Source: a virus
Lineage: Duplodnaviria; Heunggongvirae; Uroviricota; Caudoviricetes
IMG/VR virus record: IMGVR_UViG_3300029461_000006
Length of the DNA stretch: 25,512 bases
Direction: 5' to 3' (one strand)
The position numbers and the translations under genes were made by a program. Shown piece after piece: positions 3-24,913 of this stretch. The notes under the pieces were generated by a model. The model saw only the letters and a program-made list of their open reading frames with translations, was not told the DNA's origin and searched no databases. Within the stretch, counting starts at the first letter, position 1. The number at the start of each line of letters is the position of its first letter.

Positions 3-152
3 CACTTCGTTATTGCACCGACAGAAGATGAGGCCCGCTCTCAGCTTCCTGACGCCCCATGTATTTTCTCTGCCCGTTTTTCCACTGATTCACGCAATTC
101 TCTCAGTTACTGGTGCCTCCCTGTTAACGCTTCTGCTCAGGAGGGACTATGA
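3..152 (+). CDS. icd: icd-like (interference with cell division) protein, 5' end cut by the window edge
   Basis: Homologous to the 3' part of the 73-aa ORF at 7120-7341; stop overlaps the ant ATG in an ATGA junction, as in the P1 ImmI operon. Confidence 0.4.
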   Translation, partial: HFVIAPTEDEARSQLPDAPCIFSARFSTDSRNSLSYWCLPVNASAQEGL

Positions 153-1267
153 GAACGTCATTAGTCACCCGTGAAGAGATGATCGAGGCAATTGAACAGC
201 ACACTGCCTGTATCAGTACCAGGGATATACCAGGCGTTATTGCCAACTACTTCATGATCACCAAACAACTTTACCGGAGAAAGGACAAGAACGCGGTTCA
301 CCGTATCCTGTTGTCTGATATCCGCGAATACCTGCTCGAACAGGGTCATCTGAATTACGCAACCGCCGCAGCCGAAGCACGCAAGGAGGCACACAGAATG
401 AAAGCAACTAACGTTAAATCAGAAAAAATTCATGCACCTTCAGTTCAAGAATCGGAGCTGGTGGTTGTTCAGAATCAGTCTGATGAAATTCCCGTTCTGG
501 AATGGCAGGGAGTGCGTGTAGTGACAACCGAGACTCTTGCTAGAGGGTATGGGACAGAAACAATCCGTATTCGCCAAAATCATCATGAGAACAAAGTACG
601 CTTTGTTGAAGGGAAGCACTTTTTCAAAGTTGAAGGAGAATCATTGCGCGAGTTGAAGCACAGAGTAGCTTTAAACTACTCTGTAAAAATTGCTCGCAAT
701 GTTCGCTCACTCACCCTCTGGACAGAACGCGGCGCAGCCCGCCACGCTAAAATGCTCGAAACCGATCAGGCATGGGCATTCTTTGAAAAACTGGAAGACA
801 GCTACTTCCGACAAAAAGAACAGCAACCGATCGCAATCCCCCAGACGCTTCCTGAAGCCCTACGCCTGGCTGCCGAACTGGCTGAACAAAAGCAACTTCT
901 GGAACAGAAAGCCCACCAGCTAAATCAGCAGCTGGTGGCCGCCGCTCCTAAAGTCGATTTTGCCGACCGGGTATCAGTAGCTAAAGGGATCCTGATTGGG
1001 AATTTTGCAAAGGTTGTTGGACTTAAACAAAACGCGCTGTTTGTCTGGTTACGGGAGAACGGCATCCTGATAGCGTCCGGTGGACGTAAAAATGTGCCGT
1101 TCCAGCAGTACATCAACGCGGGGTATTTCACGGNNNNNNNNNNNNNNNNNNNNNNNNNNNNNNNCTACCAGATACGGTTGACGCCTCAATTAACGGGTAA
1201 AGGCCAGCAGTGGTTGACGCGTAAACTGCTCGATGCTGGCTTGTTAAAACCGGTGGCGGCTGAATAA
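149..1267 (+). CDS. ant1: Phage antirepressor (Ant-like, KilAC-type C-terminal domain), copy A; contains a 31-nt N mask
   Basis: 372-aa ORF with an AGGAGGG RBS; C-terminal region (…VAKGILIGNFAKVVGLKQNALF…GGRKNVPFQQYINAGYF) is typical of phage antirepressor KilAC domains; in-frame internal Met (MKATN) could give a shorter Ant2-like product; paralogous to 7338-8453. Confidence 0.7.
   Translation: MRTSLVTREEMIEAIEQHTACISTRDIPGVIANYFMITKQLYRRKDKNAVHRILLSDIREYLLEQGHLNYATAAAEARKEAHRMKATNVKSEKIHAPSVQESELVVVQNQSDEIPVLEWQGVRVVTTETLARGYGTETIRIRQNHHENKVRFVEGKHFFKVEGESLRELKHRVALNYSVKIARNVRSLTLWTERGAARHAKMLETDQAWAFFEKLEDSYFRQKEQQPIAIPQTLPEALRLAAELAEQKQLLEQKAHQLNQQLVAAAPKVDFADRVSVAKGILIGNFAKVVGLKQNALFVWLRENGILIASGGRKNVPFQQYINAGYFTXXXXXXXXXXXYQIRLTPQLTGKGQQWLTRKLLDAGLLKPVAAE
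1134..1164. other. Run of 31 N (masked or unresolved bases) inside ant copy A
   Basis: Literal n characters; the run is exactly the length of the corresponding segment in copy B (8323-8353), so it preserves the reading frame. Confidence 1.
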
Positions 1268-3304: not shown

Positions 3305-4336
3305 ATGTCCAATTTACTGACCGTACACCAAAATTTGCCTGCATTGCCGGTCGATGCAACGAGTGATGAGGTTCGCAAGAACCTGATGGATATGTTCAGG
3401 GATCGCCAGGCGTTTTCTGAGCATACCTGGAAAATGCTTCTGTCCGTTTGTCGGTCATGGGCGGCATGGTGCAAGTTGAATAACCGGAAGTGGTTTCCCG
3501 CAGAACCTGAAGATGTTCGCGATTATCTTCTATATCTTCAGGCGCGCGGTCTGGCAGTGAAAACTATCCAGCAACATTTGGGCCAGCTAAATATGCTTCA
3601 TCGTCGGTCCGGTCTGCCACGACCAAGTGACAGCAATGCTGTTTCACTGGTCATGCGACGGATCCGAAAAGAAAACGTTGATGCCGGTGAGCGTGCAAAA
3701 CAGGCGCTGGCGTTCGAACGCACTGATTTCGACCAGGTTCGTTCACTCATAGAAAATAGCGATCGCTGCCAGGATATACGTAATCTGGCATTTCTGGGGA
3801 TTGCTTATAACACCCTGTTACGTATAGCCGAAATTGCCAGGATCAGGGTCAAAGATATCTCACGTACTGACGGTGGGAGAATGTTAATCCATATTGGCAG
3901 AACGAAAACGCTGGTTAGCACCGCAGGTGTAGAGAAGGCACTTAGCCTGGGGGTAACTAAACTGGTCGAGCGATGGATTTCTGTCTCTGGTGTAGCTGAT
4001 GATCCGAATAACTACCTGTTTTGCCGCGTCAGAAAAAATGGTGTTGCCTCGCCATCATCCACCAGCCAGCTATCAACTCGCGCCCTGGAAGGGATTTTTG
4101 AAGCAACTCACCGATTGATTTACGGAGCTAAGGATGACTCTGGCCAGAGGTACCTGGCCTGGTCTGGACACAGTGCCCGTGTCGGTGCCGCGCGAGATAT
4201 GGCCCGCGCCGGAGTTTCAATACCGGAGATCATGCAAGCTGGTGGCTGGACCAACGTAAATATTGTCATGAACTACATTCGTAACCTGGATAGTGAAACG
4301 GGGGCAATGGTGCGCCTGCTGGAAGATGGCGATTAG
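3305..4336 (+). CDS. cre: Cre tyrosine site-specific recombinase
   Basis: 343-aa ORF recognised as Cre (MSNLLTVHQNLPALPVDATSDEVRKNLMDMFRDRQAFSEHTWKMLLSVCRSWAAWCKLNNRKWFPAEPEDVRDYLLYLQARGLAVKTIQQHLGQLNMLHRRSGLPRPSDSNAVSLVMRRIRKEN…); adjacent loxP. Confidence 0.98.
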   Translation: MSNLLTVHQNLPALPVDATSDEVRKNLMDMFRDRQAFSEHTWKMLLSVCRSWAAWCKLNNRKWFPAEPEDVRDYLLYLQARGLAVKTIQQHLGQLNMLHRRSGLPRPSDSNAVSLVMRRIRKENVDAGERAKQALAFERTDFDQVRSLIENSDRCQDIRNLAFLGIAYNTLLRIAEIARIRVKDISRTDGGRMLIHIGRTKTLVSTAGVEKALSLGVTKLVERWISVSGVADDPNNYLFCRVRKNGVASPSSTSQLSTRALEGIFEATHRLIYGAKDDSGQRYLAWSGHSARVGAARDMARAGVSIPEIMQAGGWTNVNIVMNYIRNLDSETGAMVRLLEDGD

Positions 4337-4353: not shown

Positions 4354-4370
4354 ATTGCTCTAATTATTTG
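4354..4370 (+). promoter_or_regulatory. C1 operator immediately downstream of cre
   Basis: ATTGCTCTAATTATTTG, conserved operator core; 17 nt upstream of the ORF at 4387. Confidence 0.7.
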
Positions 4371-4386
4371 ATATTTATGGTGACAT

Positions 4387-4698
4387 ATGCGGAAGGATTT
4401 CAAAATAGACGGAAAATATGTGGTGCTGTCTGTAAGCTCTCAAATTCAGTCACCATCTGTCATTGTCACCGTAAAGTTGAGCGATAGGATGCCTGATATC
4501 GACTCGATATCTGTTGCGTTCCCCGTTAAAAGCATGCGGAGTGCTGAACATTTTGTGCTGAATGCAACGGAGGAGGAAGCGCGGCGCGGGCTTACTAGAG
4601 TGATGGCGGAATTTGGCGAACTCCTGGGTAAGGTAAACAATTCCCTTTCAATCAGTTCAGCAAGATCCAAAGCGTTAACAGCTTCCTTGATGAAATAA
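4387..4698 (+). CDS. Hypothetical 103-aa protein in the position of P1 c8
   Basis: ORF between cre and ref preceded by a C1 operator; no motif I recognise. Assignment to c8 is positional only. Confidence 0.35.
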   Translation: MRKDFKIDGKYVVLSVSSQIQSPSVIVTVKLSDRMPDIDSISVAFPVKSMRSAEHFVLNATEEEARRGLTRVMAEFGELLGKVNNSLSISSARSKALTASLMK

Positions 4699-4828: not shown

Positions 4829-4858
4829 ATTGCTCTAATTGATTGCTATAATTGAGCC
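4829..4858 (+). promoter_or_regulatory. Tandem overlapping C1 operators with an embedded TATAAT (ref promoter region)
   Basis: ATTGCTCTAATTGATTG (4829-4845) overlapping ATTGCTATAATTGAGCC (4842-4858); TATAAT at 4847-4852. ref is known to be C1-controlled in P1. Confidence 0.7.
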
Positions 4859-4912
4859 GCAGTTTTTGTCAACTACGAAGACGTTGCCATTACTTAACTC
4901 CTTGACATCATT

Positions 4913-4938
4913 GGCGGCCATCAGGCCGCCTTTTTTTT
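4913..4938 (+). terminator. Intrinsic-terminator-like hairpin with a T8 tract, ending 5 nt before the ref ATG
   Basis: GGCGGCC-ATCA-GGCCGCC followed by TTTTTTTT. Confidence 0.6.
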
Positions 4939-4943
4939 GCCAT

Positions 4944-5504
4944 ATGAAAACAATCGAACAAAAAATTGAACAGCACCGTAAGTGGCAGAAGGCAGCCAGA
5001 GAACGAGCGATCGCTCGGCAACGGGAGAAGTTGGCTGATCCGGCCTGGCGAGAATCTCAATATCAGAAAATGCGGAATACTATCGACCGCCGTATCGCTA
5101 AACAGAAAGAGCGCCCACCAGCCAGCAAAACGCGGAAAAGCGCGGTAAAGATAAAATCTCGTGGCTTGAAGGGGCGAACACCGACAGCGGAGGAACGGAG
5201 CATCACCAATGCTCTTGGCGCTCTCCCCTGCATTGCCTGCTACATGCATGGAGTAATATCTGAAGAGGTATCTCTGCACCATATCTCCGGTCGTACCGCG
5301 CCGGGTTGTCACAAAAAGCAATTGCCCCTTTGTAGATGGCACCACCAGCATGCAGCACCGGCTGAAGTAAGAGAAAAATTCCCCTGGCTGGTCCCTGTTC
5401 ATGCTGATGGTGTGGTTGGAGGCAAGAAAGAATTCACCTTGCTGAACAAGTCAGAGATGGAGTTGCTGGCTGACGCCTATGAAATGGCAAACATCATGCA
5501 CTAA
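4944..5504 (+). CDS. ref: Ref recombination-enhancement protein (HNH-family nuclease)
   Basis: 186-aa product starting MKTIEQKIEQHRKWQ…; Cys/His-rich HNH-like segment (CIACYMHG…HHISGR…CHKKQLPLCRWHHQH). The longer 221-aa ORF in the track starts at a TTG inside the operator and is unlikely. Confidence 0.88.
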   Translation: MKTIEQKIEQHRKWQKAARERAIARQREKLADPAWRESQYQKMRNTIDRRIAKQKERPPASKTRKSAVKIKSRGLKGRTPTAEERSITNALGALPCIACYMHGVISEEVSLHHISGRTAPGCHKKQLPLCRWHHQHAAPAEVREKFPWLVPVHADGVVGGKKEFTLLNKSEMELLADAYEMANIMH

Positions 5505-5542
5505 TAAATATATTATTTTTAATCTTAAATGATTGACAACTG

Positions 5543-5552
5543 ACAAGTGACT
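5543..5552 (+). promoter_or_regulatory. ACAAGTGACT motif upstream of mat (candidate late-promoter box)
   Basis: The same core recurs upstream of prt/darB (21128-21148) and, reverse-complemented, upstream of lyz (24864-24873). Confidence 0.3.
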
Positions 5553-5570
5553 TGAGTCAGAATCATCACA

Positions 5571-5633
5571 CGCCCGGTACGGATGGATCCCTTTTCAAAT
5601 ATTCCATGGACGGCACAGTCTGAGTACCGGGCG
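5571..5633. repeat. Perfect 10-bp inverted repeat (CGCCCGGTAC … GTACCGGGCG) with a 43-nt spacer in the mat leader
   Basis: Read directly from the sequence. Confidence 0.6.
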
Positions 5634-5655
5634 CTACCTTCAGTTGTATTGCTAA

Positions 5656-5680
5656 GCCGCCGCTGGTGGCTTTTCTTTTT
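5656..5680 (+). terminator. Hairpin plus T-rich tract 14 nt upstream of the mat ATG (terminator or attenuator candidate)
   Basis: GCCGCC-GCT-GGTGGC (one G-U pair) followed by TTTTCTTTTT. Confidence 0.35.
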
Positions 5681-5693
5681 TATAGGGGGCGCT

Positions 5694-6335
5694 ATGGATA
5701 AGAAAATATGCGTTGTTTCGATGAGCGTCGGTAAACCGGCGTCAATGACTGCTGCATGGATCAACAACGAGTTGATAATGGCTGAGCGGACCAGCTACCC
5801 TGAACGCCGCCGCGATATGGAACTCCAGCTGCTGCGCGAATTGCGAGAAAAAGAGGAAAAGGGTTTTATCGTGCTGGTGGAAGAGGAAAACAGCTTTATT
5901 ACGGGTCGAGTTGGCCAGCGTGTAAGGTTGCGCGATCCCTTCATGAACGGCAGGCCGGTACTAATTGAAGCAATGCAGATTTACAAGGAGCTGGAACGCC
6001 AGAAAGCAATCAAGTTACCGCGCAAGGAATCCGGCAAATACATCCTCCACCAAAGCATCTTCGATTCCGAACACGATAAAAAAGGCGATGAATTTTTCAA
6101 CATCAACTGGAGCGAAATAACGACAGAGCATGTTCTGACGTTACTATGTTGCTTTGCGACGGAATACAACAACGTTGCAAGCGCCGACTACATCAGGGCA
6201 ATGGCTGGAGAAGTTGAGGCACGCCAGGAACCATCGTTACTAAGCCCTCTGATTAACATAATTCGCGGCACACAGAGACTTGCGGAAAAAAGAGTTCCAC
6301 ACGGAATCTTAACTGGAAAGGGAAACTATTTTTAA
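5694..6335 (+). CDS. mat: Mat (maturation control) protein
   Basis: Product starting MDKKICVVSM… with a GGGGG RBS; sits after ref as in P1. The track ORF starts earlier (5583) at a weaker start. Confidence 0.75.
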   Translation: MDKKICVVSMSVGKPASMTAAWINNELIMAERTSYPERRRDMELQLLRELREKEEKGFIVLVEEENSFITGRVGQRVRLRDPFMNGRPVLIEAMQIYKELERQKAIKLPRKESGKYILHQSIFDSEHDKKGDEFFNINWSEITTEHVLTLLCCFATEYNNVASADYIRAMAGEVEARQEPSLLSPLINIIRGTQRLAEKRVPHGILTGKGNYF

Positions 6336-6368
6336 CATCCCCAAATCCTTTTGGGGAACAACTCATGC

Positions 6369-6680
6369 TTACAATTTCTGCCCCATACATTTTCTCCAGG
6401 CACTCCCCTCATTACCGTTGCCGAGGAAAGTAGAGGTTGCATATGGAATGCCTCTGATTTGTGTTGATGTGAATGGACCATCAGACGTCGAAGTTGTGCG
6501 CAGTTTTGATGTAAACTCGTAATTTCCACTGATGCCTTTCTCTGCCAGAGCTTTTGATTTTGTGATAACTAAATCTGCACATTTCTCTGCGGCTACATAT
6601 TGCGGGTCTTTTTCAGCTTTTCCGGCACATGCAGTTATCGTTAAAACAATAGCTGCGGCTAACAAATTACCTGGTTTCAT
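6369..6680 (-). CDS. Small predicted lipoprotein (103 aa), divergent from the ImmI-like operon
   Basis: N-terminal signal peptide with lipobox (MKPGNLLAAAIVLTITAC|AGK); AAGGT RBS; no recognisable catalytic motif. Confidence 0.6.
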   Translation of the reverse strand: MKPGNLLAAAIVLTITACAGKAEKDPQYVAAEKCADLVITKSKALAEKGISGNYEFTSKLRTTSTSDGPFTSTQIRGIPYATSTFLGNGNEGSAWRKCMGQKL

Positions 6681-6785
6681 CTGAATACCTTATTAAGTGC
6701 ATTAAAAACAGTAGGTTGCCAAGGTTTTAAACAAATTTCAATTCCCCATGACGCTCAACATGAGCAAAAATAACACACAAACATC

Positions 6786-6802
6786 ATTGCTCTAATTAAT
6801 TT
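6786..6802 (+). promoter_or_regulatory. C1 operator (Op51-like) at the head of the ImmI-like operon
   Basis: ATTGCTCTAATTAATTT, 16/17 to consensus; candidate sigma70 promoters follow (TTGATC 6844-6849 / TATAGT 6867-6872, 17-bp spacer). Confidence 0.7.
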
Positions 6803-6930
6803 GATTTTTTAGGTCAAATAAACTACCATTGCGCACTGCCCTATTGATCTCCTTACCGTTCAGGCTTATAGTTCCTACGTCGTAGCAAATTCTGCGACCG
6901 GGTTTAGCAGCCTGAATGTACATGCGGACA

Positions 6931-6960
6931 ACCGCAGATATCCGATATTGCGGTATTTTT
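6931..6960 (+). terminator. Hairpin plus T5 tract between the a1/b1 boxes and the c4 candidate (attenuator or terminator candidate)
   Basis: ACCGCAGATAT-CCG-ATATTGCGGT (one bulged G) followed by ATTTTT. Confidence 0.3.
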
Positions 6961-6990
6961 GTGTCCGTAAAACCACGTTACGCCCGAATT

Positions 6991-7070
6991 ATGGTGGGGC
7001 GTGATGGGGAGGCTTCGGCCTGCTGGTTTCATGTACGCCAGTCTGCTAACCCCGTCACGTCCTGCCACCC
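6991..7070 (+). ncRNA. c4: Candidate c4-type antisense RNA (secondary immunity repressor); boundaries approximate
   Basis: About 80-nt segment closed by GGTGG/CCACC; contains CATGTAC (7030-7036) and CTGCTAAC (7043-7050), complementary to the repeated TGTACATG and GTTTAGCAGC boxes at 6902-6924 and 7071-7108, the latter overlapping the icd RBS. Confidence 0.45.
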
Positions 7071-7119
7071 GTTTAGCAGCGGGTAGCAGGTTGTTAAACC
7101 TGTACATGAGGCCGTAACT

Positions 7120-7341
7120 ATGGTTAATGCCAATCCTTGCGCACGCCCGGAATTCATCTGGCGTTTCTATTCTTGTCAAAAACGTCACTATCACTTCGTT
7201 ATCGCACCGACAGAAGATGAGGCCCGCTCTCAGCTTCCTGACGCCCCATGTATTTTCTCTGCCCGTTTTTCCACTGATTCACGCAATTCTCTCAGTTACT
7301 GGTGCCTCCCTGTTAACGCTTCTGCTCAGGAGGGACTATGA
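7120..7341 (+). CDS. icd: Icd-like small protein, translationally coupled to ant
   Basis: 73-aa ORF with a GAGG RBS inside the a2/b2 target region; stop overlaps the ant start (ATGA). A 78-aa alternative in another frame (7127-7363) overlaps ant by 26 nt and fits the coupled layout less well. Confidence 0.5.
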   Translation: MVNANPCARPEFIWRFYSCQKRHYHFVIAPTEDEARSQLPDAPCIFSARFSTDSRNSLSYWCLPVNASAQEGL

Positions 7342-8480
7342 GAACATCGTTAGTTACCCGTGAAGAGATGATCGAGGCAATTGAACAGCACACTGCCTGT
7401 ATCAGTACCAGGGATATACCTGGCGTTATTGCCAACTACTTCATGATCACCAAACAACTTTACCGGAGAAAGGACAAGAACGCTGTTCACCGTATCCTGC
7501 TGTCTGATATCCGTGAATACCTGCTCGAACAGGGGCATCTGAATTACGCAACCGTCGCAGCCGAAACACGCAAGGAGGCACACAGAATGAAAGCAACTAA
7601 CTTTAAATCAGAAAAAATTCATGCACCTTCAGTTCAGGAATCGGAGCTGGTGGTTGTTCAGGATCAGCATGATGAAATTCCCGTTCTGGAGTGGCAGGGG
7701 GTGCGTGTAGTGACAACCGAGACTCTTGCTAAAGGGTATGGGACAGAAACAATCCGTATTCGCCAGAATCATCATGAGAACAAAGTGCGCTTTGTTGAAG
7801 GGAAGCACTTTTTCAAGGTTATTGGCGATGAGCTGAAAAATTTGCGGGTAGCTTTAAACTACTCACAAAATCCAGTCTCACCCAAAGCCCGCTCACTCAC
7901 TCTCTGGACAGAACGCGGCGCTGCCCGCCACGCTAAAATGCTCGAAACCGATCAGGCATGGGCGTTCTTTGAAAAACTGGAAGACAGCTACTTCCGACAA
8001 AAAGAACAGCAACCGATCGCAATCCCCCAGACGCTTCCCGAAGCACTGCGCCTGGCTGCCGAACTGGCTGAACAAAAGCAACTATTGGAACAGAAAGCCC
8101 ACCAGCTAAATCAGCAGCTGGTGGCCGCCGCTCCTAAAGTCGAGTTTGCCGACCGGGTATCAGTAGCTAAAGGGATCCTGATTGGGAATTTTGCAAAGGT
8201 TGTTGGACTTAAGCAAAACGCGCTGTTTGCCTGGTTACGGGAGAACGGCATCCTGATAGCGTCCGGTGGACGTAAAAATGTGCCGTTCCAGCAGTACATC
8301 AACGCGGGGTATTTCACGGTGAAAGAAGTGGTGCTGGATGATGAAGATGGCTACCAGATACGGTTGACGCCTCAATTAACGGGTAAAGGCCAGCAGTGGT
8401 TGACGCGTAAACTGCTCGATGCTGGCTTGTTAAAACCGGTGGCGGCTCAATAATGGAAGAATGCCCGGTTGATGCCGGGC
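7190..8480 (+). repeat. Copy B of the ~1.29-kb diverged direct repeat (icd 3' end + ant + hairpin)
   Basis: Collinear with 1-1294; differences include a clustered divergent patch at 7820-7906 (copy A 631-720). Confidence 0.9.
7338..8453 (+). CDS. ant1: Phage antirepressor (Ant-like, KilAC-type), copy B, within a complete ImmI-type module
   Basis: 371-aa ORF with an AGGAGGG RBS; same family as 149-1267; internal in-frame Met as a candidate Ant2 start; preceded by operator, c4 candidate and icd. Confidence 0.75.
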   Translation: MRTSLVTREEMIEAIEQHTACISTRDIPGVIANYFMITKQLYRRKDKNAVHRILLSDIREYLLEQGHLNYATVAAETRKEAHRMKATNFKSEKIHAPSVQESELVVVQDQHDEIPVLEWQGVRVVTTETLAKGYGTETIRIRQNHHENKVRFVEGKHFFKVIGDELKNLRVALNYSQNPVSPKARSLTLWTERGAARHAKMLETDQAWAFFEKLEDSYFRQKEQQPIAIPQTLPEALRLAAELAEQKQLLEQKAHQLNQQLVAAAPKVEFADRVSVAKGILIGNFAKVVGLKQNALFAWLRENGILIASGGRKNVPFQQYINAGYFTVKEVVLDDEDGYQIRLTPQLTGKGQQWLTRKLLDAGLLKPVAAQ

Positions 8481-8494: not shown

Positions 8495-8595
8495 TTAATC
8501 AGCATTCAGGAGCAATGCGTTATCTATGATGATCTGCTCCCATTCTTCGAATGCCCGATCGCGGACGCCCTAGGGAACACTGTCTGTTTTGAAAT
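8495..8595 (-). pseudogene. Relic of the lxc 3' end (last ~33 codons) with an in-frame stop, abutting the res 3' end
   Basis: 101 nt at about 90% identity to 13631-13731. Minus-strand translation gives FKTDSVP*GVRDRAFEEWEQIIIDNALLLNAD* against lxc FKTNSVPQGVRDRAFEEWEQIIIDNALLLNAD*; 8 of the 10 differences are synonymous. Confidence 0.6.
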
Positions 8596-8626: not shown

Positions 8627-11539
8627 TTATGGTAATGCGCTCTTGATTAGCTGATAAATATCATCATTAGCAAACTGCGTTCTGAATTCAACTTTAACAG
8701 ACCGACTTATTTGATTGAAAAGCGCCTGGGCATGTTCAATTTTCCGTTTTTCTTCAAGCCGTAAACTATCCTTACTATCTACGTTTTTTGTTTCAATGAT
8801 AAAGTTAAGATAATCACCTTCTGCTGTTTTTACAACATAAGCAAAATCGGGTGAGTAAGTGTATCCACCAGCTACCGGGATCTTAATAGAATTCTTCGGT
8901 ATCTTTGAAAAAACAACAACAGACTGGATCTCTCTATCTGTTATATTACGCCTTTCAAGCTCTGAATCATAAAAAACTTCTTCAAAAAGATAAGTATCTA
9001 ATGGTGCTTTTGCATTATCCTGCAATACACCAAGATCACTTGATAATACCTCATCTAGAGGATTACCATCAGCATTTGTGAACTTTGTAGGATGAATTGA
9101 ACCCGAAATCAAATTATATCCGAGGCTGAATTTGTTAAACGAATTGTTCAACAAATACTTACTAAAACCAGATTTAATTTTTCTGATTGTTTGAATATTA
9201 AGGTATTCAGTGATATTAATAGTGTCTTTTATATCACAAAAAACTTTATGTAAAGTATCGTGTTTAACAAAAATAGTTTGTGATAAGTTATCGAGAAACT
9301 CTCGATAGCTCATTGTGTTTAGCTTAGCAAAGTCATCGTCATCACTGACAATGCTTTTCGACATTGCCATATCATTGTGGATGTAAATTTTATCAATGCG
9401 AGTATGAACGCCTGATTTGGTAAATCGTTCTGTTTCTTCGAGCATGAATGACTTGAAAATGGATAAAAATTCACTTTCACTGTTTATTTTGTACTCAATC
9501 ACCGCTTTTTGATTGATCAAATCCCATAGTTCTTTCAGCTCACTGAACTTACCAACACGCATTTTAGTGCGTCTTTTTCCATCAGTAGCTTTTTTGATTT
9601 TACCAGGTTTCACTCCTATAGGGAATGCTGCTGGATATTTGGATTTTAAGCGGCTATATGCATCTGAATCTTTGAAATTATCATTGTCATCAATGATTTC
9701 ATCATTGAAAAGTTCATTCATTAGTGCTCTGGATGAAAGCTCAGGATACTGAGCCCTGATTTGTTCCTTAAGCTCTTGAGTAAACTTACTTGGAACCCTT
9801 TCTTTGAAAGAACTCTCGTTGACCTCTTTAACAAGTGAGTCAACAAAATCTTTTTCTGTAAAATCAACATAATAGTTGAGAGTGAAATTGCGATCTTTCA
9901 CTCGACACATGTATTCATTCACAGGAAGACGCAAACCGCGCCCTACCTCTTGAAGCTTAGATGTGGTACTACCGCTCGAACGGAGCTTACAGATCTGAAA
10001 GACATTAGGATTATCCCACCCCTCACGCAACGTCCATTTTGAGAAAATAAACCGACGGGGATTATCTAAAGACAGCAAAAGCTCTTTGTCATGAAGGATT
10101 TCGTTGATTTCCTGCTCGATTTTATCATCCTTATCACTGTTATCTTTTGAGAAATAACCACCATGAACGGAAGATATATCTTTGACTGTTTTTTCAAGAT
10201 AGTTTTTATAAAACGCATCTTGCTCTGTTTTTAACAGTTCATTAGCTTCTGCCAGAACGTATTCTTCGAATTTGGTTTTCAGGCTTCCGGCAATATCATT
10301 ACCGTCACGATAGCCTTCAATATCGTCAATAAAGAAAAGAGTAAGAGGCTTTATGCGTGGCCTTTGTGTCAGAAGTTCTTTTTCTAACTTAAAGTGTTCT
10401 TTGACAGCCTTACGCATCATATTATCAGCAAGTGTCTGATCGTAAGAATAGGGATTTATTGAGCTACCAATCTTCAGCTCAATACCATTACTCAACACTG
10501 CTGTGCTCTTGTTTAAAGCATCAAGAGTTAAATCATGGATCGCACTATGCGTCTTAGACAGTGATTCACCTTTAGCTAACTTAAACGTTTTTTTATTGTT
10601 GTTTTCATTCAGTTCAAATGTAGCTTCTTTTCCGTCAGATTTGACGAATTTGAGGTTTGCGTTACCATCGCCGACTATATCCTCAATATATGCATCAATA
10701 CCTTTAACGAGATCCTCGTTAAATGCGTCCACGGCTGTAAGACGATAAACCAGGTTCTTATAGCCTTCGCTAAAGGTTGCGCCATAGCGGATAATATATT
10801 GTGCGTTAAATTTCTCTATGTTTTCCCATGTTTTTTTACCAGTAGGAAATCTATGTGGTTCGTCAATGATGATAAATGGTTTTACAGCTCTGAGCGCGTC
10901 AACTGGAGTATTAAACTGATTATCAAGCAAGCCAGTATCGTAAGTATCCGTTAAAGACTTAGAGTTGATCATTCCTGAGTTAATAACAAGAACGTGTATA
11001 TATTTTTTATTGAAGTTACTTGCTTCAACAAAATCATGTATAGCCTGAGGCATATACGATTTTGTATTTTTGCCAGAGTTTTTCTGACTTTCAACAACGT
11101 AAGTTCTCAGCTCACGCTCGTAATCATCCCGGAAGTGTTCTTTTAAAGCATCACTTTTTAAAAAGTTAACGGTTCCGGCCTTGATAGATAGAGTCGGAAC
11201 AATGATGATAAACTTGTTAATACCAAATGATTTATTCAGGTCAAAAATAGTTTTGGTATAGGTGTACGTCTTGCCTGTACCTGTCTCCATAGAAACATCA
11301 ATGATGTTGCTTTTAGCATCGTAATTATCTTTTGAGTGCTCAATACCATTAAACTCCTGAACATTTTTTATGTTGTTGTAGTATTGTTGTTCAGATAGTT
11401 CCAGTTCTGGATTAGCTAACAGGCGAATAGTAACATTATCCGTCAGGTGAGGTATTGCGGAAACAAAAACATTCATCACCGCATCGACTCCGGCTTTCTG
11501 ATGCGGCAAGTTCTTTTCGAGAGTGAACCCTTTTGACAT
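8627..11539 (-). CDS. res: Type III restriction-modification Res subunit (SF2 helicase/endonuclease, EcoP1I-type)
   Basis: 970-aa ORF recognised as P1 Res; Walker A (METGTGKTY) and DEPH box (IIIDEPHRF); start lies 2 nt after the mod stop (translational coupling). Confidence 0.93.
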   Translation of the reverse strand: MSKGFTLEKNLPHQKAGVDAVMNVFVSAIPHLTDNVTIRLLANPELELSEQQYYNNIKNVQEFNGIEHSKDNYDAKSNIIDVSMETGTGKTYTYTKTIFDLNKSFGINKFIIIVPTLSIKAGTVNFLKSDALKEHFRDDYERELRTYVVESQKNSGKNTKSYMPQAIHDFVEASNFNKKYIHVLVINSGMINSKSLTDTYDTGLLDNQFNTPVDALRAVKPFIIIDEPHRFPTGKKTWENIEKFNAQYIIRYGATFSEGYKNLVYRLTAVDAFNEDLVKGIDAYIEDIVGDGNANLKFVKSDGKEATFELNENNNKKTFKLAKGESLSKTHSAIHDLTLDALNKSTAVLSNGIELKIGSSINPYSYDQTLADNMMRKAVKEHFKLEKELLTQRPRIKPLTLFFIDDIEGYRDGNDIAGSLKTKFEEYVLAEANELLKTEQDAFYKNYLEKTVKDISSVHGGYFSKDNSDKDDKIEQEINEILHDKELLLSLDNPRRFIFSKWTLREGWDNPNVFQICKLRSSGSTTSKLQEVGRGLRLPVNEYMCRVKDRNFTLNYYVDFTEKDFVDSLVKEVNESSFKERVPSKFTQELKEQIRAQYPELSSRALMNELFNDEIIDDNDNFKDSDAYSRLKSKYPAAFPIGVKPGKIKKATDGKRRTKMRVGKFSELKELWDLINQKAVIEYKINSESEFLSIFKSFMLEETERFTKSGVHTRIDKIYIHNDMAMSKSIVSDDDDFAKLNTMSYREFLDNLSQTIFVKHDTLHKVFCDIKDTINITEYLNIQTIRKIKSGFSKYLLNNSFNKFSLGYNLISGSIHPTKFTNADGNPLDEVLSSDLGVLQDNAKAPLDTYLFEEVFYDSELERRNITDREIQSVVVFSKIPKNSIKIPVAGGYTYSPDFAYVVKTAEGDYLNFIIETKNVDSKDSLRLEEKRKIEHAQALFNQISRSVKVEFRTQFANDDIYQLIKSALP

Positions 11540-11541
11540 GA

Positions 11542-13500
11542 TTAGTTCCTCACCACCAAATCTAACTCAATAGATTTTTTATTAGCATAACTTTTTAGTG
11601 CTTCATTGAGTTCCATTTGCTTTGCGCTTTCAAAGTTGCTGCCATAAAACACGATTTTGTTTGGAGCAAAGTCTTTGTCTGAATCCACCTTTTGAAGTAA
11701 CGCTTTCAATGCTTCGCTAGTAAAATTAGGTGCAATCAAATACAGACGACCATCGCACAAATGTGCTTTGTAGCCACCAAGATCAACATCTTCAATAGGT
11801 GTTGTTAGCAAACTGCCATCATACAGGCACCATGTAGTTAATAGAGTGTCATATTGTTCAGGCGTCAAGACAACATCATCAAAGAATGTATGATTAGACA
11901 GTGTAAGTTCTGATTCGTCTTTAGCGCGAAAATCTGGCATTAATTGGTAAATTTTAAAGCCAAACTTACCACTTCCCTCACAAACTCTAATTAATCTTTC
12001 TTTGGTTAGGTCATAAATGGTTTTAAAACCATGCTTAAAAGCATCAGAATTATCTTTTGTATCCTCATCTAATTGAACAGTTATGAATTGATAATTCATG
12101 CCTTTTTCTTTGTTTAAGTTTAAAATAGCATGCGCTGTTGTACCCGAACCTGCAAAAAAATCCAATACAATACCTTTGCCATCACATGCAAAAGAGATCA
12201 ATTCTTCAAGTAGTTTAATGGTTTTAGGGTTAGTGAAAGGCTTAGTCATTTCAGGGAAAATTGCTTTTAGCTCATTAGCCCCGGCTCGACCATCAATATT
12301 AATAACAGAACTTAACTTCTGCTTATAGTCTTTAGCATAAACCTTTATTTCCACTAATTTATTTTCATCTTCACCAAAGATAATCCGCCCATCATCAATC
12401 ATTTTTAGCATAGTAGCTTCAGGGAAGCGATATCCCATCAAAGGCTGCTTGCAAGGTTTCTTTGTTATTGGATGAATAATATCATACCGATATCCTTCTT
12501 TACCGGGGTTATGAATCCCCCTCTCCCCAGAATATACACCTTTACGGTCTATGAACTTATAATTTTCCAGAGGCCATAATTGACTTTTGTTTTCTCTAAA
12601 CCACTTTGTGTACTCTTCCTGTAATTTTTCGTCATCTTTTATGTCATTAATTAATGAATCCCCTACTTCAACAAGCAAATCCTTTACATCTGAGATGTTT
12701 GACTTCCACTCAGTTTCAATTAATTCTTTATTTCTAGCATAAACAACAATATATTCATGTTCTACAGCAATGTTCGACGGATTGTTATCTGTAACATTTT
12801 TCCAGACGATGTCTCCGATGTGATTTTGTTCACCAAAAATCTCATCGCAAACTAGCTTTAATTGACTAAACTCATTGTCATCAATAGAAATAAAAATAGT
12901 CCCATCTTCTCTCATTAATTCACGAGCAATATAAAGGCGTGGGTAAATGAATGTCAGCCATGCACTATGACTGCTTGACCCCTTGGTGGTAAATTCTAAT
13001 ATGCGTTTAGCCTCATCGAGGTCGATGCCTGCAAGTTCAGAAAGCTGCTCAGGTGTAAATTTGCGATCATCATTATAAACGAACCCATCCTTACCTGTAT
13101 TGTATGGTGGGTCAATGTAAATCATCTTCACCTTTTCAGCGTAAGCATTAACCATATGCTTCAATACTTCGAGATTATCCCCTTTGATTAACAGGTGTTG
13201 ACTGTTCTTGTTCTCTTCTTGTTGGTTATGTGTTTTATCTTCTGCCAACAACGTTTTCGGTGGTAGATTGGCCAACAAACGGGCATAAGATTTACCCAGC
13301 CAGTTTAAGCTGTATGATTCTCTAGAGAGTTCAACCTCCGATGCTCTAATAATCTCAAGCAATTTTTCTTGAATGAAGGCTCCGTTTTTATCAAAACACT
13401 GTGGGAAATTAGCTTTCAACACAGCCAGTTGCTTGCTGTTAGCCGTTTCTACTTCGGAAAAAATCGTTTCTTTTTTCATATCCATTTTAAACCAGATCAT
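11542..13500 (-). CDS. mod: Type III restriction-modification Mod subunit (N6-adenine DNA methyltransferase, EcoP1I-type)
   Basis: DPPY motif (IYIDPPYN) and AdoMet-binding FxGxG (FFAGSGTT); directly upstream of res. True start may be an internal Met (MDMKKET… or MKKET…), since the track ORF is slightly longer than the roughly 646 aa I recall for P1 Mod. Confidence 0.92.
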   Translation of the reverse strand: MIWFKMDMKKETIFSEVETANSKQLAVLKANFPQCFDKNGAFIQEKLLEIIRASEVELSRESYSLNWLGKSYARLLANLPPKTLLAEDKTHNQQEENKNSQHLLIKGDNLEVLKHMVNAYAEKVKMIYIDPPYNTGKDGFVYNDDRKFTPEQLSELAGIDLDEAKRILEFTTKGSSSHSAWLTFIYPRLYIARELMREDGTIFISIDDNEFSQLKLVCDEIFGEQNHIGDIVWKNVTDNNPSNIAVEHEYIVVYARNKELIETEWKSNISDVKDLLVEVGDSLINDIKDDEKLQEEYTKWFRENKSQLWPLENYKFIDRKGVYSGERGIHNPGKEGYRYDIIHPITKKPCKQPLMGYRFPEATMLKMIDDGRIIFGEDENKLVEIKVYAKDYKQKLSSVINIDGRAGANELKAIFPEMTKPFTNPKTIKLLEELISFACDGKGIVLDFFAGSGTTAHAILNLNKEKGMNYQFITVQLDEDTKDNSDAFKHGFKTIYDLTKERLIRVCEGSGKFGFKIYQLMPDFRAKDESELTLSNHTFFDDVVLTPEQYDTLLTTWCLYDGSLLTTPIEDVDLGGYKAHLCDGRLYLIAPNFTSEALKALLQKVDSDKDFAPNKIVFYGSNFESAKQMELNEALKSYANKKSIELDLVVRN

Positions 13501-14349: not shown

Positions 14350-17300
14350 TTATGCGTATTGTTGGATGACGGCCAGAACGTCCGCCACGTTGTGTTTTGT
14401 CTCGATAATCCACCAGTTACCCGGGAAATCGCTGTTCTTCGCCTTCGCTGGCAGCCAGCGAGCGCCGAATTTCGCCTTGATTGCGTCTTTCGCACGGAAA
14501 AGAACGCCTTTCATGCCTGAGGCTTCCTGAAGCCCAAATACCTCGCCAGCGGCGAATTTTGGTGCGTACATCATCTTCAGGTCGGCGGTGGATACGCGAT
14601 AATTCAGACCAAGAGACTGAGCTATGCTGGTGGCATCACCCTGTATTGATGATAACTCTTCTTGTTTCTCGTTTCTGGCGGCAATCTCTTCCTCCGTGAT
14701 GTTGCCAAGGGTTAGGTTTATCCGATCAGCGTCGGCCTGTTTCTCTTCATCGGTGCGCCCGGCAAGAACCGTGTTAATTCTCTGCAATATCTCCACATGA
14801 TTCTTGCGCATGCTGAGCAATTCCGGCGTAACCTCGTTAAGATCCACCAGCCCAAGGATGGCAAGGTCGGAAAACATTGATACCAGGTTGTAGGTCATGC
14901 GATAGCTGAGTTGACCATAGGCTGATGGCAACTTCACCGCATCCATTTGATAGGCATCCATAAATTTAGAGCCGTTGTTTACGACATCCGCTATTGCAGG
15001 TGTGATTTTCCCTGTGGTGGCGGCCTCCCTGATTGCTGTTACCCACGATTGAGTCAGCGCGGCGACTGCATGATTCAGATTGGCTTCCCGTTCTGCTGCG
15101 ATGCGCGCGCTTGCTGCGTCCATTGCCTGCTTGATCTCGGCTTTATTGCTGTAAATGCCAATGGTGCCAAACTGTGCTGTGGTGATCTCATAATCTGACG
15201 CCCGGAACTCATTGGTACCGAAAATGGCATTGGTGACTTCAAGTTCAGAATCCCCGTTACGAGTAGCCCCCTGGCTTGTTTTTTCCGGCATTCTGGCGAT
15301 CGCATCCGCTATTTTCTCCTGAATTGCTTCAGGGGATAGCGTATCTCCGTATGACGCGATTACATCGCCATAATTGGAGCCAAACAATTCAACCAGGAAT
15401 GTTTCTGCCGAACGGATCTGGCGGTTATTCCCTTCCGACATCATACCAAGCACCCATTTTGCAATTGACGACTTCAGCGCGCCGTCACGGCGATCCGGGT
15501 AAACCGCATGCTTCAGTGGGTCCGTATAGGTACCAACAAAATCAATGCTATAGCCTGACTCTGTAGTCTGAACGCCGTACGAGTCAGTTATTTTGATCAT
15601 GCCGCGCTGCTGGAAACGGTAGAAATCGTCACAGGAAATGATGTCGTTAATCCCGGCGATGGAGACGCCACCACTGATTTTCTGCATAACAGCATCTTCA
15701 TCGGGAGTTACATCCACCTGTTTATCCAGCGTCTTCACATCCCAGTTACCCGATTTGGTGCCTTTGAAGGTAAAGATGATCTCCACGTCTGCGCGCTGGC
15801 TGTCGAAGTCCAGCGACTTAATGCGAACGATATCACCGGCACAATCGTAGTATTGGCCTACACGCCATGAGCGATCGCCGATAACAAGGAACTCACTCGC
15901 ATGGTTAACCAGGTCAGGATCAACATCCAGAATGCCTTTATTTATTGCATCCTCCACCAGCGGGCGCAGGCGTTTGATATCCGTCGCGGCCTTCTGAGTA
16001 CGGTTCAATAATTTCTCATAGCGGGAGATGGCTTGAGAGATATTAGCCTTGCGCTGAATGGCGTTTTTCAACGACGCGCGATACTGTGCTAACAACATAC
16101 GGTCTGTGTGATGGACGCTCCCCCAGCGGGCCTTCCAGTCTGCGTTATCAGCTGCTTTGGCCATTACCGCCTGTTTGAATTTAGCTACCTCGGCGGTGGT
16201 CTTTTCAAGTTCCGCTTTGCTTCGCTCTAATTCAGCGGTAAGTACCTCCACATCCTCGCCAGCTGCGTGCTGCGCCTTGATGTAGTTCTGAAGGTCGATA
16301 GTAGCCTGTTCTTTCTGGCGAGCGCGTTGCGCGGCTTTCGCCTTATCCATTTGAACCTGCATCATTGCCAGACGTTCGCCATCATCCTTAGCGGTATACA
16401 TCTGCATTTCGATCATATCGTTGGCGTCGGCGTTCTCCATTTCAGACTTATCTGAGCGGAGGATATCGGAGATCCAGCCTGCTTTACGCTTCAGCGTCTT
16501 CAGTCGGTATTCATCGAAAGAACCCTTGCCGCAGTAGTAGTGAACGCGAACGCTTGCACGGTTGGAACCAACTCGGGCACCGCGACCGTTACGCTGTGCG
16601 ATACTGGCTGGTGTCCATGGCAACGTCAGATGATGGATGTCAGTCGTTCCTCGATGCAGGTTGATACCCACCTCTGCCTTTTTGTTGCAGATGATGATCG
16701 GAGTCCGGCCCTCCTGGAAGTCGGCAGCAATCTTTTCCAGCCCACCCAGCGACATTTCATTTTGCTGCGCGATATAGGCGTCATACAGAGCCATTTGCTC
16801 GTTGTATTTCGCTATCTGTGCATCTGTTGGTTCATCCGGTAACTCTTTCGGCGGTTTAACCGCTTTCAGTTTCTTACCGGTTTTACCTGCCTCGGCAACC
16901 GTCTGAGCATTCAGGATCCCTACCTTTGAAGGTTCAAGGTTAAGAGCATTGCAGATAATGCGTTTGAGCTTCTGGTGCTGCGTTTTTTCGTCGGTGAAGA
17001 TGATTTGCTTCCCTTCCGGGAAAAACTCCTTCAGCGTGGCGATCAGCTTCGCGTATTTCGGCGTAACGGGGTGAGTTACGGTCTGTTCGTCAATGCCAAA
17101 CCTGGCCAGGCGCTTATTCACTTCCTGCTCGAACGCTTCCGGAACCTGCAACTGAATAAACTCGCCCTTATCTATCAGGGAGTATTGCGATTGCTGCGTG
17201 ATTGAATCATCACTGTCGTCGTCTTCGCTGGTGGCTTGTTTAGGCAAACTGTCCGCCAGCTGCTGCACCGCATCGGCGTACTCCGGCAGGAAACGATAGG

Positions 17301-20300
17301 TGATCCGGCGATAGTACAGGTCCATGTCAGTACATACGCGGTCCATATCCCTGATTATTGAGAAGATCGGACGGGCTTTCTCGTGCTCAATCACGCCGTC
17401 TTCATTGACCGAGGTCGTTACGCCATTGTTGGCTTTTGCTGCCGCTTCCGCCTGCTGACGTAATTCTTCATACGCCGCCAGTTGTTCTTCAGTAAGTGGT
17501 GCATCCTGCTGGTGCTCGTCCAGTTCCGGGATCTCCACGGTATCCTTAACGTCTTCCGCCGTTTTAAGCGTTGTCCAGCGATGGAATATGCCGCGCAGCG
17601 CATCAAGGTTTTCAAAGCCCACCAGCGCCATTTTTTCTTCAACTTCACCGCTGATTTTCTGTACCGTTTCCAGCCTGGTCTTGCCGAAGAATTTTACGAA
17701 GTCATCAGGACTGTAGATCCCCATCTTCTGCCAGTATTCCTTCGGCAGAACATGAGAAAGCATGTTGTATGCATCGATCGGGGTGTTAACGACTGGCGTT
17801 GCAGTCAGGAGAACCGGTCCGCGCCCACCATTCTTTTTCATCAGGTACGCGTTTTTAATTGCCATATCCCGCGCCGATTGCGCCACCGCGCTGGTGGGCA
17901 GATAGGCCAGTTGTGACGCTTCGCGACCATTTTTATAGCTATTGCGGTAGTTGTGACCTTCGTCAGCGATCACACTATCGAAGCCCATATCCTCAAAGTA
18001 CGGATACTTCTCTGCTTTTTCGGTGCCGGTATCTGAATACTCCGACAATACCCGGCGACGCGCGGCCTCTTTGCGGTGGGAGTCGGAGTCCATTGCGCTG
18101 GCTACGCGCCCGGCGGCAACGAAGTCATAAAGCATATCCTGTGCATGCTCATCTACGGTGTCATCACGTAGCGGAATGCGGGCGTATTGTTCTTTGGTAA
18201 ACACGACTGCACGGTAATTTGAGTGCGGGATCGCGTTCATCCGCGCCGTGATAGTGGCTTCATCTGCCAGCTTAAGAGCATCGCGCATAACTGGAGTGCC
18301 ATCAGTACCAAGAACAGGTTTACCGTTCTCATCGAGCACCGGCACCTGGCGAATCTGATCGCCATCCATCAGCACATCAAGACCGACGAACAGGTAGTTA
18401 CTGAATGCCTCTTCACTCAGGAATTCTTTTGCTTCGTAATACCAGTTTTCCAGCACTGATTTAGGCACTACATACGCAGTACGGGTGGAGCGACCGTTCT
18501 CATAGTTGAACGCCTCAAGCGCCAGCGCGGTCGTGGTTTTACCCAGCCCGGTGCCGAAGCCCAGGATGCCGCGCCCATCTTCGGACAGTCGGCGCACCTC
18601 GCTATTCTGGTAATCAAATGGCTGGCGCTTACCGCTTAATCCCTTCAACCCAAGCGGATCGCCAGAGTGTTCATACGGGATATTGCTATTGAACACATCG
18701 TTGTATTTGGCAACCAGCTCATCGTAGCGATCGTGCGTCTTGATCCACTTATTGAACTGGTCCTCAAGCAGTGCCATCTGCTCGCGGTAGCCGTTCGCCG
18801 TCGCGCTATCTTTGCCACCGATACGCGCACCATTGAGATACTTTTCCAGCTGTGCCGGGAACCCGGTCGCGTTTTCACCTGATTTACGGTCCCACTCGTA
18901 GCGGATCTCGCCTGTTTCTTTATCCTTGCGCTGGACGACACCGTATCGGTGCCCGACGAACAGACCATCACCACCGTGATAGGTGTCAGAAACCATTTCG
19001 TCGCCTTCCAGCTGCACTGACTGCACATAGCGAAGATCCGGATAGCCGTTTTCCTGCAAAAATTCCAGAATGACGGAACGGTCGAACCAACGGCTATTGA
19101 GCTTAAAGCGGATATTCTCTGCTGGCGTCTTGATGCGCTTCTCTTCGATCGCTGCCAGCTGATTAAGGACGTTGTTCTTTACTGGACCGTCGGGGAGTGT
19201 GGCAAGGAATTCCTGTTTTGGTACCACTATCTCGTTAATGTCGCCGCTGGTGGCGCGGGCGAACGGAACAATCCCGCCATACGGTGAAACCGCAATGCCA
19301 GGGGTGCTGGCCAATAAATTAAGCAACTCGTCATCACTGGCTGGCAGTTCGCCGGTAAACGCAAGGCGGAAATCATCGAGCTGGATTGGATCGCGAGTGA
19401 GATCACTGTAGAGATAACGCAGGGTGTCCTGATAGCTGGTGGAGTCATAACTGGCGCTGGAATCATGCGTAACCAGTTTTCCTGTCAGCTCGTCAGAAAT
19501 AGTGCCATCCAGCTTAATTGCACCACGGAAAGCAAACCAGGCGCGCGCACCGCTCCCCGATAATTTCGCTATCGGACCGCGACCGGGGTTACCAAAACGG
19601 TCAATCTCTGCCTGCAAACGGGATACCAGAGAAAGGCGCTGCTGTTCGATTTGTTCAGCACTATGCCCGGCGGCCTTCATGTCCTGATATTCAATTAACA
19701 TCCGGCCAATCATCGCCCCGCGATACAAGCGTTCACGGTATTTTTCAGGCTGGCTGTTAATCCAGTCCACCAGCTGCACCATATCGTCGCTGATTGATGT
19801 GGTGTACTTATCGCGGACATTTGCCATCTGGGTAAATGTCATACCGAGACGGCCTTCTGTTGTAGTCAGGTTACGCTGAAGAGCCTCCCAGCTGTCCGCG
19901 CCATAACTGGCAACATCAATCTTCAGCTCCTTCCCTGCATCAGCTTCAATCCAGCGACCACCAGCATATTTTTGCCATACGCCATTAATCAGGCGCATTT
20001 CCCCTTCATCAACAACGTCTGCGGTCGGTGACGGTTCAGCCATATTGAGCAAAGACCAGTCGATACGACTTTCGAAACGATGAATCAGCTTCGCTTTAAG
20101 AGCCTGGTTATCAATCTGCCCGTCGGCACGAACCTCAATACGCCCCTGGAATCCCTTCTCCTGAGTGCCATGAACAAACCGGCGGCCGTCCTTTTCAAAC
20201 CACTTGCCAGAAATAAACGTTGGCCAAAGCACATTTGCCGATTCAAGAGTGCTTTCATCCACCAGGGGGATTTTCTCAGCCATCTCTGCCGGATGTTTGC

Positions 20301-24896: not shown

Positions 24897-24913
24897 ATTG
24901 CTCTAATTATTTT
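24897..24913 (+). promoter_or_regulatory. C1 operator in the lyz/ssb divergent intergenic region
   Basis: ATTGCTCTAATTATTTT, 15/17 to consensus, 20 nt upstream of the ssb start. Confidence 0.65.

Follow-up and report, generated by a model that had tools for sequence, protein, structure and literature searches.

A predicted outer-membrane lipoprotein family in the sim slot of P1-like phage-plasmids and on the F plasmid, with a possible role in exclusion

The window analysed here was the whole 25,512-nucleotide stretch of IMG/VR virus record IMGVR_UViG_3300029461_000006 (Duplodnaviria; Heunggongvirae; Uroviricota; Caudoviricetes), which was a P1-like phage-plasmid, and the gene under study was a 103-amino-acid (aa) open reading frame (ORF) encoding a small lipoprotein. 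What is new is a family of envelope proteins, uncharacterised and without a structural match, that occupies the slot in which phage P1 carries its sim genes and that is found also in the F plasmid. The gene is read, tentatively, as a functional accessory gene of the phage-plasmid whose product might act as a superinfection or entry-exclusion factor.

The 103-aa ORF was recovered from the ORF list at exactly 6369..6680 on the minus strand, and the lipoprotein call was made by the PROSITE PS51257 pattern and rule (charged n-region, uncharged h-region, lipobox [LVI][ASTVI][GAS]C, and Cys within residues 15-35) plus family conservation of the lipobox Cys. The N-terminus (MKPGNLLAAAIVLTITA followed by CAGK) had K2 in its n-region and an uncharged, hydrophobic h-region, residues 8-18 (AAAIVLTITAC) matched the pattern with lipobox I-T-A-C ending at Cys18, and this Cys was kept in at least 90% of the members in the family alignment. 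The clear lipoprotein signal with lipobox ITAC that the initial annotation, made from the sequence alone, had described was borne out, and the protein is by these signals a Sec- and Lgt/LspA-type prolipoprotein with the lipobox Cys at residue 18. The +2 residue was Ala and not Asp, while A, S, T, N, or M and never D was found at +2 in the family members shown; in Enterobacteriaceae, Asp at +2 means inner-membrane retention by the Lol sorting rule, under which the +2 Ala predicts transfer of the lipoprotein to the outer membrane, where it would be located.

The genomic position was compared with those in P1 and P7. The P1 genes simA, simB, and simC were transcribed divergently from Oc4, and all three products had signal peptides; SimC is the processed periplasmic Sim protein of P1 superimmunity. 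Homology between the ImmI regions of the window and P1 started exactly at the C1 operator 6786-6802, which aligned with the annotated P1 Oc4, and the sequences to its left were unrelated. The lipoprotein gene was indeed directly upstream of and divergent from the operator heading the ImmI-like module (a C1 operator, 106 bp away), and the P1 layout confirmed the earlier claim that this is where P1 carries sim, divergent from the c4 operator. In P7 and the related plasmid NZ_CP122822.1, the slot held a 170-173-aa lipoprotein (lipobox LLSGC, a Gly/Ala-rich stretch, and a TraT match below threshold with E 7e-5 and 23 bits versus a cutoff of 31) paired with a secreted DUF5384 protein. As judged by sequence comparison, three unrelated cassettes, all coding for exported proteins, occupy the slot divergent from the c4 operator; taken with the homology break at the operator, they make the positional argument stronger, which is not a test of function. 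In the literature, simABC and res-mod were listed as two of eight variable regions of P1-like plasmids (PMC9603915). The protein gave no match in a tblastn search of 50,697 phage records, in keeping with its not having been recognised as a known P1 gene product in the initial annotation, and neither did its 62%-identical homologue; hhalign of the family profile detected no homology to SimC (probability 0.3%).

The ORF of the IncF-plasmid copy was 92.6% identical to that of the window (15 of the 23 differences at third codon positions), and the nonsynonymous-to-synonymous rate ratio (dN/dS) between the window and the F-plasmid copy was 0.21 by the Nei-Gojobori method; by its substitution pattern, the lipoprotein gene is under purifying selection and is a real gene, not a chance ORF. 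A RefSeq record 100% identical to the window annotated it as hypothetical protein WP_094506091.1. When 1.84 billion representative proteins were searched exhaustively by HMMER, the query being the mature domain, 17 relatives were obtained at E <=0.001 (one being a spurious repeat protein), and profile searches enlarged the family to about 50 clusters. Nearly all the members were lipoproteins of about 105-121 aa from Enterobacterales, with a few entries being fragments, and the family is, on the sequences collected, a small and Enterobacterales-only one. Its members were named in databases as 'hypothetical protein', as automatic 'Lipoprotein', or by evident mislabels (YceK and LpoB). PHROG 16031, of the category unknown function, matched the full length of the protein (E 1e-66; residues 1-103 aligned with positions 3-105 of the 105-position profile). 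There was no match in Pfam or NCBIfam for the single protein or family profiles, none in PADLOC-DB 2.0 at E <=1 for the window protein and three homologues, and none for the protein or its family profile among PDB sequences (no chain at E <=10 for the profile) or in fold libraries. A literature search by RefSeq accessions yielded nothing on the lipoprotein, and the F/R100 names yihA and yigB gave noise or unrelated genes. A housekeeping homologue of known function was likewise not found, although chromosomal homologues without known function do exist.

C34, Y80, G92, W95, and C98 were invariant across the family including remote homologues, and the C-terminal family motif was (I/V)xYxxS(T/S)xLDNGxxGSAWRxCM. 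An AlphaFold2 model built from a 22-sequence alignment had block-mean predicted local distance difference test (pLDDT) values of 71-94 across ten-residue blocks of residues 21-100, and it comprised a helix at 26-47, a long beta-hairpin with strands at 54-67 and 70-83, and a helix at 93-102. Because the invariant C34 and C98 were located in the first and last of these helices, respectively, the modelled lipoprotein might be clamped by a C34-C98 disulfide. The window allele had Gly87 (codon at 6420-6422) in place of the near-invariant Asp of the family LDNG motif; D87 was found in all the close alleles inspected but one, which differed from the window allele by I15R.

The lipoprotein gene was shared with IncF plasmids including the classical F: blastn matched the shared segment to pUMNK88_Ent and to F (NC_002483.1 2092-2610). 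The F copy displayed about 89% protein identity and 91% DNA identity to the window gene, was flanked by IS3-split finO, a nuclease pseudogene, and srnB/RepFIC, and had no ImmI module. A 3' remnant of mat, corresponding to the last 88-90 bp of that gene, was recognised at NC_002483.1 2094-2180 in F (85% identity to P1 mat; E 7e-14). Since the gene is accompanied by this remnant, a fragment composed of truncated mat plus the lipoprotein gene was captured from a P1-like element by F and by other IncF plasmids. On the evidence of these alignments, the joining of mat to the lipoprotein gene predates that to ImmI, and mat, not ImmI, is the most conserved neighbour of the gene. The cassette 6337-6765 was present in 94 of 5,426 complete Escherichia coli genomes, with 86 locations on plasmids and 11 on chromosomes; those chromosomal records that were listed came from laboratory strains (K-12 MG1655 derivatives, Origami2, Stbl4, XL10-Gold, and KLY), and these chromosomal copies were probably acquired via integrated F or F'.

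The gene was found in P1-like plasmids of E. coli and Salmonella, and further homologues were found in three settings: (i) Enterobacter P1-like plasmids carried the 62%-identical homologue between cre and ref, with no adjacent ImmI or icd/ant; (ii) homologues of 33-35% identity adjoined integrated inoviruses (secretin, Zot, G5P, and replication protein) in Pectobacterium; and (iii) chromosomal homologues, for which genomes were also scanned with the chromosomal subfamily alignment, were present in Buttiauxella, Leclercia, Scandinavium, Silvania, Enterobacter soli, Citrobacter sp., and Pseudescherichia. Near some chromosomal homologues lay genes of envelope import. Buttiauxella ferragutiae had both tonB and a TonB-dependent receptor gene no more than 1.5 kb away, Silvania had a TonB-dependent receptor gene at 0.7 kb, and a Buttiauxella metagenome-assembled genome had, at about 1 kb, an ORF whose product ended in a TolA C-terminal domain and began with a lipobox-like N-terminus. 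These TonB/TolA/receptor neighbours give a weak, post hoc hint at a target, the class having been defined after looking. A MltF-like gene (SBP_bac_3 plus SLT) ended 10-30 bp upstream of the homologue in Scandinavium, Citrobacter sp. OP27, Pseudescherichia, and a Chryseobacterium-labelled record. Several chromosomal loci had common anchor genes (a DsbD-redoxin fusion and a methyltransferase) and so were not independent of one another. The Chryseobacterium-labelled record, CACSKA010000003.1 ('Chryseobacterium sp. 18061'), had an MltF-like protein and a lipoprotein that were 91-95% identical to the pair of Scandinavium; wrong labelling or contamination by the genome of an enterobacterium is probable for this record. 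The variable cre-ref region of the Enterobacter plasmids is an accessory gene island, and it also coded (at 1332-1973 in one record) for Tad2-like, DUF6884, Ead/Ea22-like, and DUF968 proteins, with the Tad2-like protein presumably belonging to an anti-defence family.

As for expression signals, the Shine-Dalgarno sequence of the lipoprotein gene was also present in the F-type copy. A standard promoter scan gave no site on the strand of the lipoprotein gene, while a weight matrix gave a candidate sigma-70 promoter composed of -35 TTGAAA (6741-6736), a 17-nucleotide (nt) spacer, and TGn-extended -10 CAACCT (6718-6713); its score was reached by 24 of about 51,000 window positions, with 0.05 such sites expected per 105 nt. 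This candidate promoter lay within the segment shared with F, in which the -35 was kept and the -10 of the F-type copy was CAGTCT. The predicted promoter was 45 bp from the C1 operator and would therefore probably escape C1 repression, which would allow expression of the lipoprotein gene in the lysogen from its own predicted promoter. The hairpin between mat and the lipoprotein gene was part of the F-shared segment and not of P1; its fold energy was -12.1 kcal/mol (z -4.6) on the plus strand and -11.2 kcal/mol (z -2.0) on the minus strand.

The surroundings of the lipoprotein gene are summarised in Table 1. P1 homology, as traced by blastn, covered window 5501-6336 (P1 2634-3469) and resumed at 8593 (P1 3510), while the mat-res gap of P1 was 75 bp; because P1 homology stopped at 6336 and resumed at 8593, the sequence in between was identified as an insertion. 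By this alignment, the ImmI-like module beside the lipoprotein gene, placed between mat and res, is an accessory second copy. The a1b1 targets and C4 RNA of this module were identified with Rfam models RF03163 and RF01695, and its c4-icd region was 86-93% identical to those of P1, P7, and Ro157c2YLVW. Eight C1-operator-like sites with up to 3 mismatches were found in the window versus 0.15 expected, which fits a P1-type C1 regulon spread across the window. The whole mat-lipoprotein-c4 arrangement was present in only 16 of the 902 mat-bearing plasmid records matching that query.

Table 1. Coordinates of features in the window and in related elements
Feature	Coordinates	Strand	Remarks
Lipoprotein coding sequence	6369..6680	minus	ATG start, 103 aa, stop included; mature protein 86 aa from Cys18
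Signal peptide and lipobox	6627..6680	minus	residues 1-18, MKPGNLLAAAIVLTITA followed by Cys; PROSITE PS51257 pattern
Shine-Dalgarno AAGG/AAGGT	6687..6691	minus	7 nt ahead of ATG; read from sequence
Candidate sigma-70 promoter	6713..6741	minus	weight-matrix prediction, best upstream site, 10.2 bits
Hairpin	6338..6357	both	8 bp, GC-rich, without U-tract; between convergent mat and lipoprotein genes
C1 operator ATTGCTCTAATTAATTT (Oc4/Op51 equivalent)	6786-6802	plus	1 mismatch to consensus; 106 bp upstream of ATG
Segment common to IncF plasmids including classical F	6247..6765		about 91% identity; mat end, hairpin, lipoprotein gene, and 85 bp upstream
Insertion relative to P1	6337..8592		2,256 bp, between mat and res; lipoprotein cassette and second ImmI-like module
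ImmI-like module	6844..8453	plus	promoter, a1b1, C4 RNA, icd, ant
P1c4-type promoter	6844-6872	plus	promoter scan
c4 a1b1 targets	6866-6918		Rfam, above gathering score
C4 antisense RNA	6987-7072		Rfam, above gathering score
icd	7120-7341	plus	
ant (second copy)	7338-8453	plus	ANT and ORF6N domains
ant (copy 1)	149-1267		adjoins c1
c1	1300-2151	minus	
cre	3305-4336		
c8	4387-4698		
ref	4839-5504		
mat (maturation control)	5583..6335	plus	convergent with lipoprotein gene; 96% identical to P1 mat
res	8627-11539	minus	
mod	11542-13500	minus	
darB	14350-21117	minus	
C1-operator-like sites	2246-2262, 2710-2726, 2793-2809, 4354-4370, 4829-4845, 6786-6802, 21047-21063, 24897-24913		
F copy of lipoprotein gene	NC_002483.1 2214-2531		hypothetical protein, WP_250911031.1
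P7 slot genes	P7 49507-50571		upf50.5 (annotated outer membrane lipoprotein) and upf50.0 (annotated signal peptide)
P7-type slot pair in NZ_CP122822.1	21651-22706 of the analysed stretch		

The window carried two ImmI-like icd/ant modules, one by c1 at 1-1267 and one between mat and res at 6786-8453, and a run of 31 N, standing for masked or unknown bases, was located at 1134-1164 inside the first ant. In a related record, the first ant lay between pacB and c1, and the two icd-ant copies were about 90% identical. NZ_CP122822.1 had the same module plus a canonical ImmI (icd-ant-kilA-repL) elsewhere; this lipoprotein-bearing P1-like plasmid also encoded a full-length OmpC porin at 94301-95413, an envelope cargo that could change phage receptor display. 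The P1-like phage vB_EcoM-Ro157c2YLVW lacked the lipoprotein gene and had the same c4-icd variant (92.6% identity) immediately upstream of mat in divergent orientation; recombination of the accessory ImmI module is therefore not tied to the lipoprotein cassette.

If the lipoprotein is an exclusion factor, its action might involve the following steps: (i) transcription from its own promoter, about 45 bp off the C1 operator, so that it would be made in the lysogen; (ii) display at the outer membrane of a helix/long beta-hairpin/helix unit that would be clamped by the C34-C98 disulfide; and (iii), as the most speculative step, binding to a part of the envelope that incoming DNA or toxins require, by which the lysogen would be protected, with a receptor in the outer membrane, the Ton/Tol import machinery, and an enzyme that cuts peptidoglycan as the candidate targets. 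Exclusion would then work like that by Llp/Cor/Rtp45 or P1 Sim, without relationship to them. In the initial annotation's case for exclusion, the lipoprotein nature and the sim-slot position held up, and exclusion is plausible given this position and the predicted localisation. Homology to SimC was lacking. A further support comes from the mobile-element association in independent lineages (P1-like plasmids, Pectobacterium inoviruses, and F/IncF). It is doubtful, as a proposal in its own right, that the lipoprotein is the founding member of a new mobile-element outer-membrane lipoprotein family blocking envelope crossing by phages, colicins, or DNA, with a fold and a target unrelated to those of Sim, Llp, Cor, and Rtp45, and with Ton/Tol-dependent import and lytic-transglycosylase-assisted wall penetration as candidate targets.

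Several points weigh against an exclusion role. There was no receptor-binding-protein gene beside the lipoprotein gene, unlike in the case of Llp. P1 adsorbs to lipopolysaccharide (LPS), and therefore P1 itself would not be kept out if a protein receptor were masked. Linkage to ImmI was not conserved, as the Enterobacter homologue had no icd/ant and the F copy kept mat. The homologues of Leclercia, Scandinavium, and Buttiauxella look like ordinary, vertically inherited genes, and so the family may originally have served a purpose that has nothing to do with phages. Only a few neighbours offer hints, their class was defined post hoc, several loci share anchor genes, and the promoter of the lipoprotein gene is a prediction only. 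The window allele itself may be impaired or less active, because Gly replaces the near-invariant Asp87.

An unlikely alternative is that of a lysogenic-conversion or fitness lipoprotein, which would derive from a chromosomal Enterobacterales family, be kept by mobile elements for host benefit, and serve envelope homeostasis, stress, or host interaction, like Bor or TraT in serum resistance. The non-mobile chromosomal contexts in Leclercia, Scandinavium, Enterobacter soli, and Buttiauxella favour it, as do the persistence of the gene on F and on many IncF virulence plasmids of pig enterotoxigenic E. coli, where it lies beside heat-labile toxin (LT) genes, and a size and localisation class resembling that of Bor; on the other hand, no Bor/Iss or TraT Pfam match was obtained, the slot in the P1-like element is that of sim, and the gene resides in three kinds of phage or plasmid elements. 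The gene might instead be a passenger without a role in the P1-like element, carried along with the mat-proximal variable region and, in its D87G allele, decaying. The rarity of the arrangement among the plasmid records (16 of 902), the placing of the F copy within a captured fragment flanked by IS3, the nuclease pseudogene, and srnB, and the Gly at near-invariant Asp87 would suit such a passenger, but it is rather improbable in view of the dN/dS of 0.21 between copies about 7% divergent over the ORF, the ORF, Shine-Dalgarno, and -35 that were intact in both contexts, and the spread of the protein, the exact window form being found on 74 contigs and the D87 sister allele, the commonest, on 807.

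Two other proposals concern the cell wall and the secretion or lysis apparatus. A partner or inhibitor of an SLT-type lytic transglycosylase at the outer membrane, which would also neutralise virion-delivered enzymes and exclude at the wall-penetration step, is suggested by the operon-like pair with the MltF-like gene, kept where other neighbours differ, and by the SLT-domain tail protein encoded by P1-like plasmids and the SLT domain of P1 Sit. This proposal is quite improbable: the pair represents one syntenic block in related genera, no MltF-like gene adjoined the homologues of Leclercia, Buttiauxella, and Pectobacterium or the copies on mobile elements, and there was no similarity to solved lysozyme/transglycosylase inhibitors in PDB. 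An outer-membrane spanin subunit (Rz1-like) or a secretin pilotin is extremely improbable, and both readings were rejected on context and predicted fold. The PHROG match to an Rz-like spanin was weak (E 0.27) and limited to the signal peptide, no i-spanin, holin, or endolysin was found nearby in the window, and the mature protein of 86 aa, in contrast to a short proline-rich peptide, was modelled by AlphaFold2 as a folded alpha/beta unit. The Pectobacterium homologue lay about 0.7 kb from an inovirus secretin gene, as a pilotin gene might, but on the strand opposite to the phage genes; no secretin gene adjoined the gene in P1-like plasmids or in this F region, and the protein had no Pfam match at all, hence none to pilotin families.

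If the lipoprotein is an exclusion factor, it would (i) be a structurally new class among the few envelope-level exclusion proteins, (ii) explain the slot divergent from the c4 operator as a swap site for exported proteins in P1-family phages, and (iii) give a function to an unannotated ORF of F and hence of many F' strains, in which phage and colicin assays might be affected. A mere fitness lipoprotein would make this an ordinary finding. Whatever the function, DNA has passed from a P1-like phage-plasmid into the archetypal conjugative plasmid, as the mat remnant in F records.

The comparison with known systems was led by P1 Sim. The window gene and P1 simABC share the same slot, divergent from the C1 operator heading c4-icd-ant, and the products of both are exported to the envelope; in contrast, the Sim proteins have ordinary signal peptides without a lipobox, sim comprises three genes (53, 111, and 264 aa) versus one 103-aa gene in the window, and the locus is the canonical ImmI in P1 versus an extra ImmI copy between mat and res in the window. 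P7 Upf50.5/Upf50.0 resembles the window in having an outer-membrane lipoprotein gene in the sim slot, divergent from Op(c4), but Upf50.5 is unrelated in sequence, has 170 aa, a weak TraT-like match, and a DUF5384 partner, and belongs to the canonical ImmI locus. Lambda Bor/Iss and F TraT, which function in serum resistance or surface exclusion, are also mobile-element outer-membrane lipoproteins made in the carrier state; however, the Lambda_Bor and TraT Pfam families gave no match, TraT differs in size, and both Bor/Iss and TraT differ in predicted fold.

Llp (T5), Cor (T1, phi80, and relatives), and Rtp45 are, like the window protein as predicted here, small phage-borne lipoproteins that face the periplasm at the outer membrane, and the disulfide of Llp/Cor has its possible counterpart in the invariant Cys pair in the first and last helices of the window family. 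They differ in that the window gene lies not beside a receptor-binding-protein gene but beside mat and c4/icd/ant, and that its carrier is a plasmid prophage of the temperate myovirus type, which uses LPS as receptor; the mature window protein, with 86 residues, is also larger than Rtp45. Small periplasm-facing outer-membrane lipoproteins were reported to block phage receptors (PMC9586334, PMC12685063): in Llp, whose gene adjoins that of pb5, a Cys11-Cys58 disulfide ties the termini, the Cor family has an intramolecular disulfide too (PMC9586334), and Rtp45 is about 6 kDa (PMC12685063). No PDB chain was matched by sequence or fold that would indicate similarity to Llp/Cor/Rtp45, with the published Llp-FhuA and Rtp45-LptDE structures probably among the chains searched. 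By sequence and profile comparison, the window lipoprotein is outside the Sim, Llp/Cor/Rtp45, Bor, and TraT families, and it belongs to the same protein family as PHROG 16031 and the F ORF, the latter differing in its setting as a captured fragment between finO/IS3 and srnB/RepFIC with no ImmI module.

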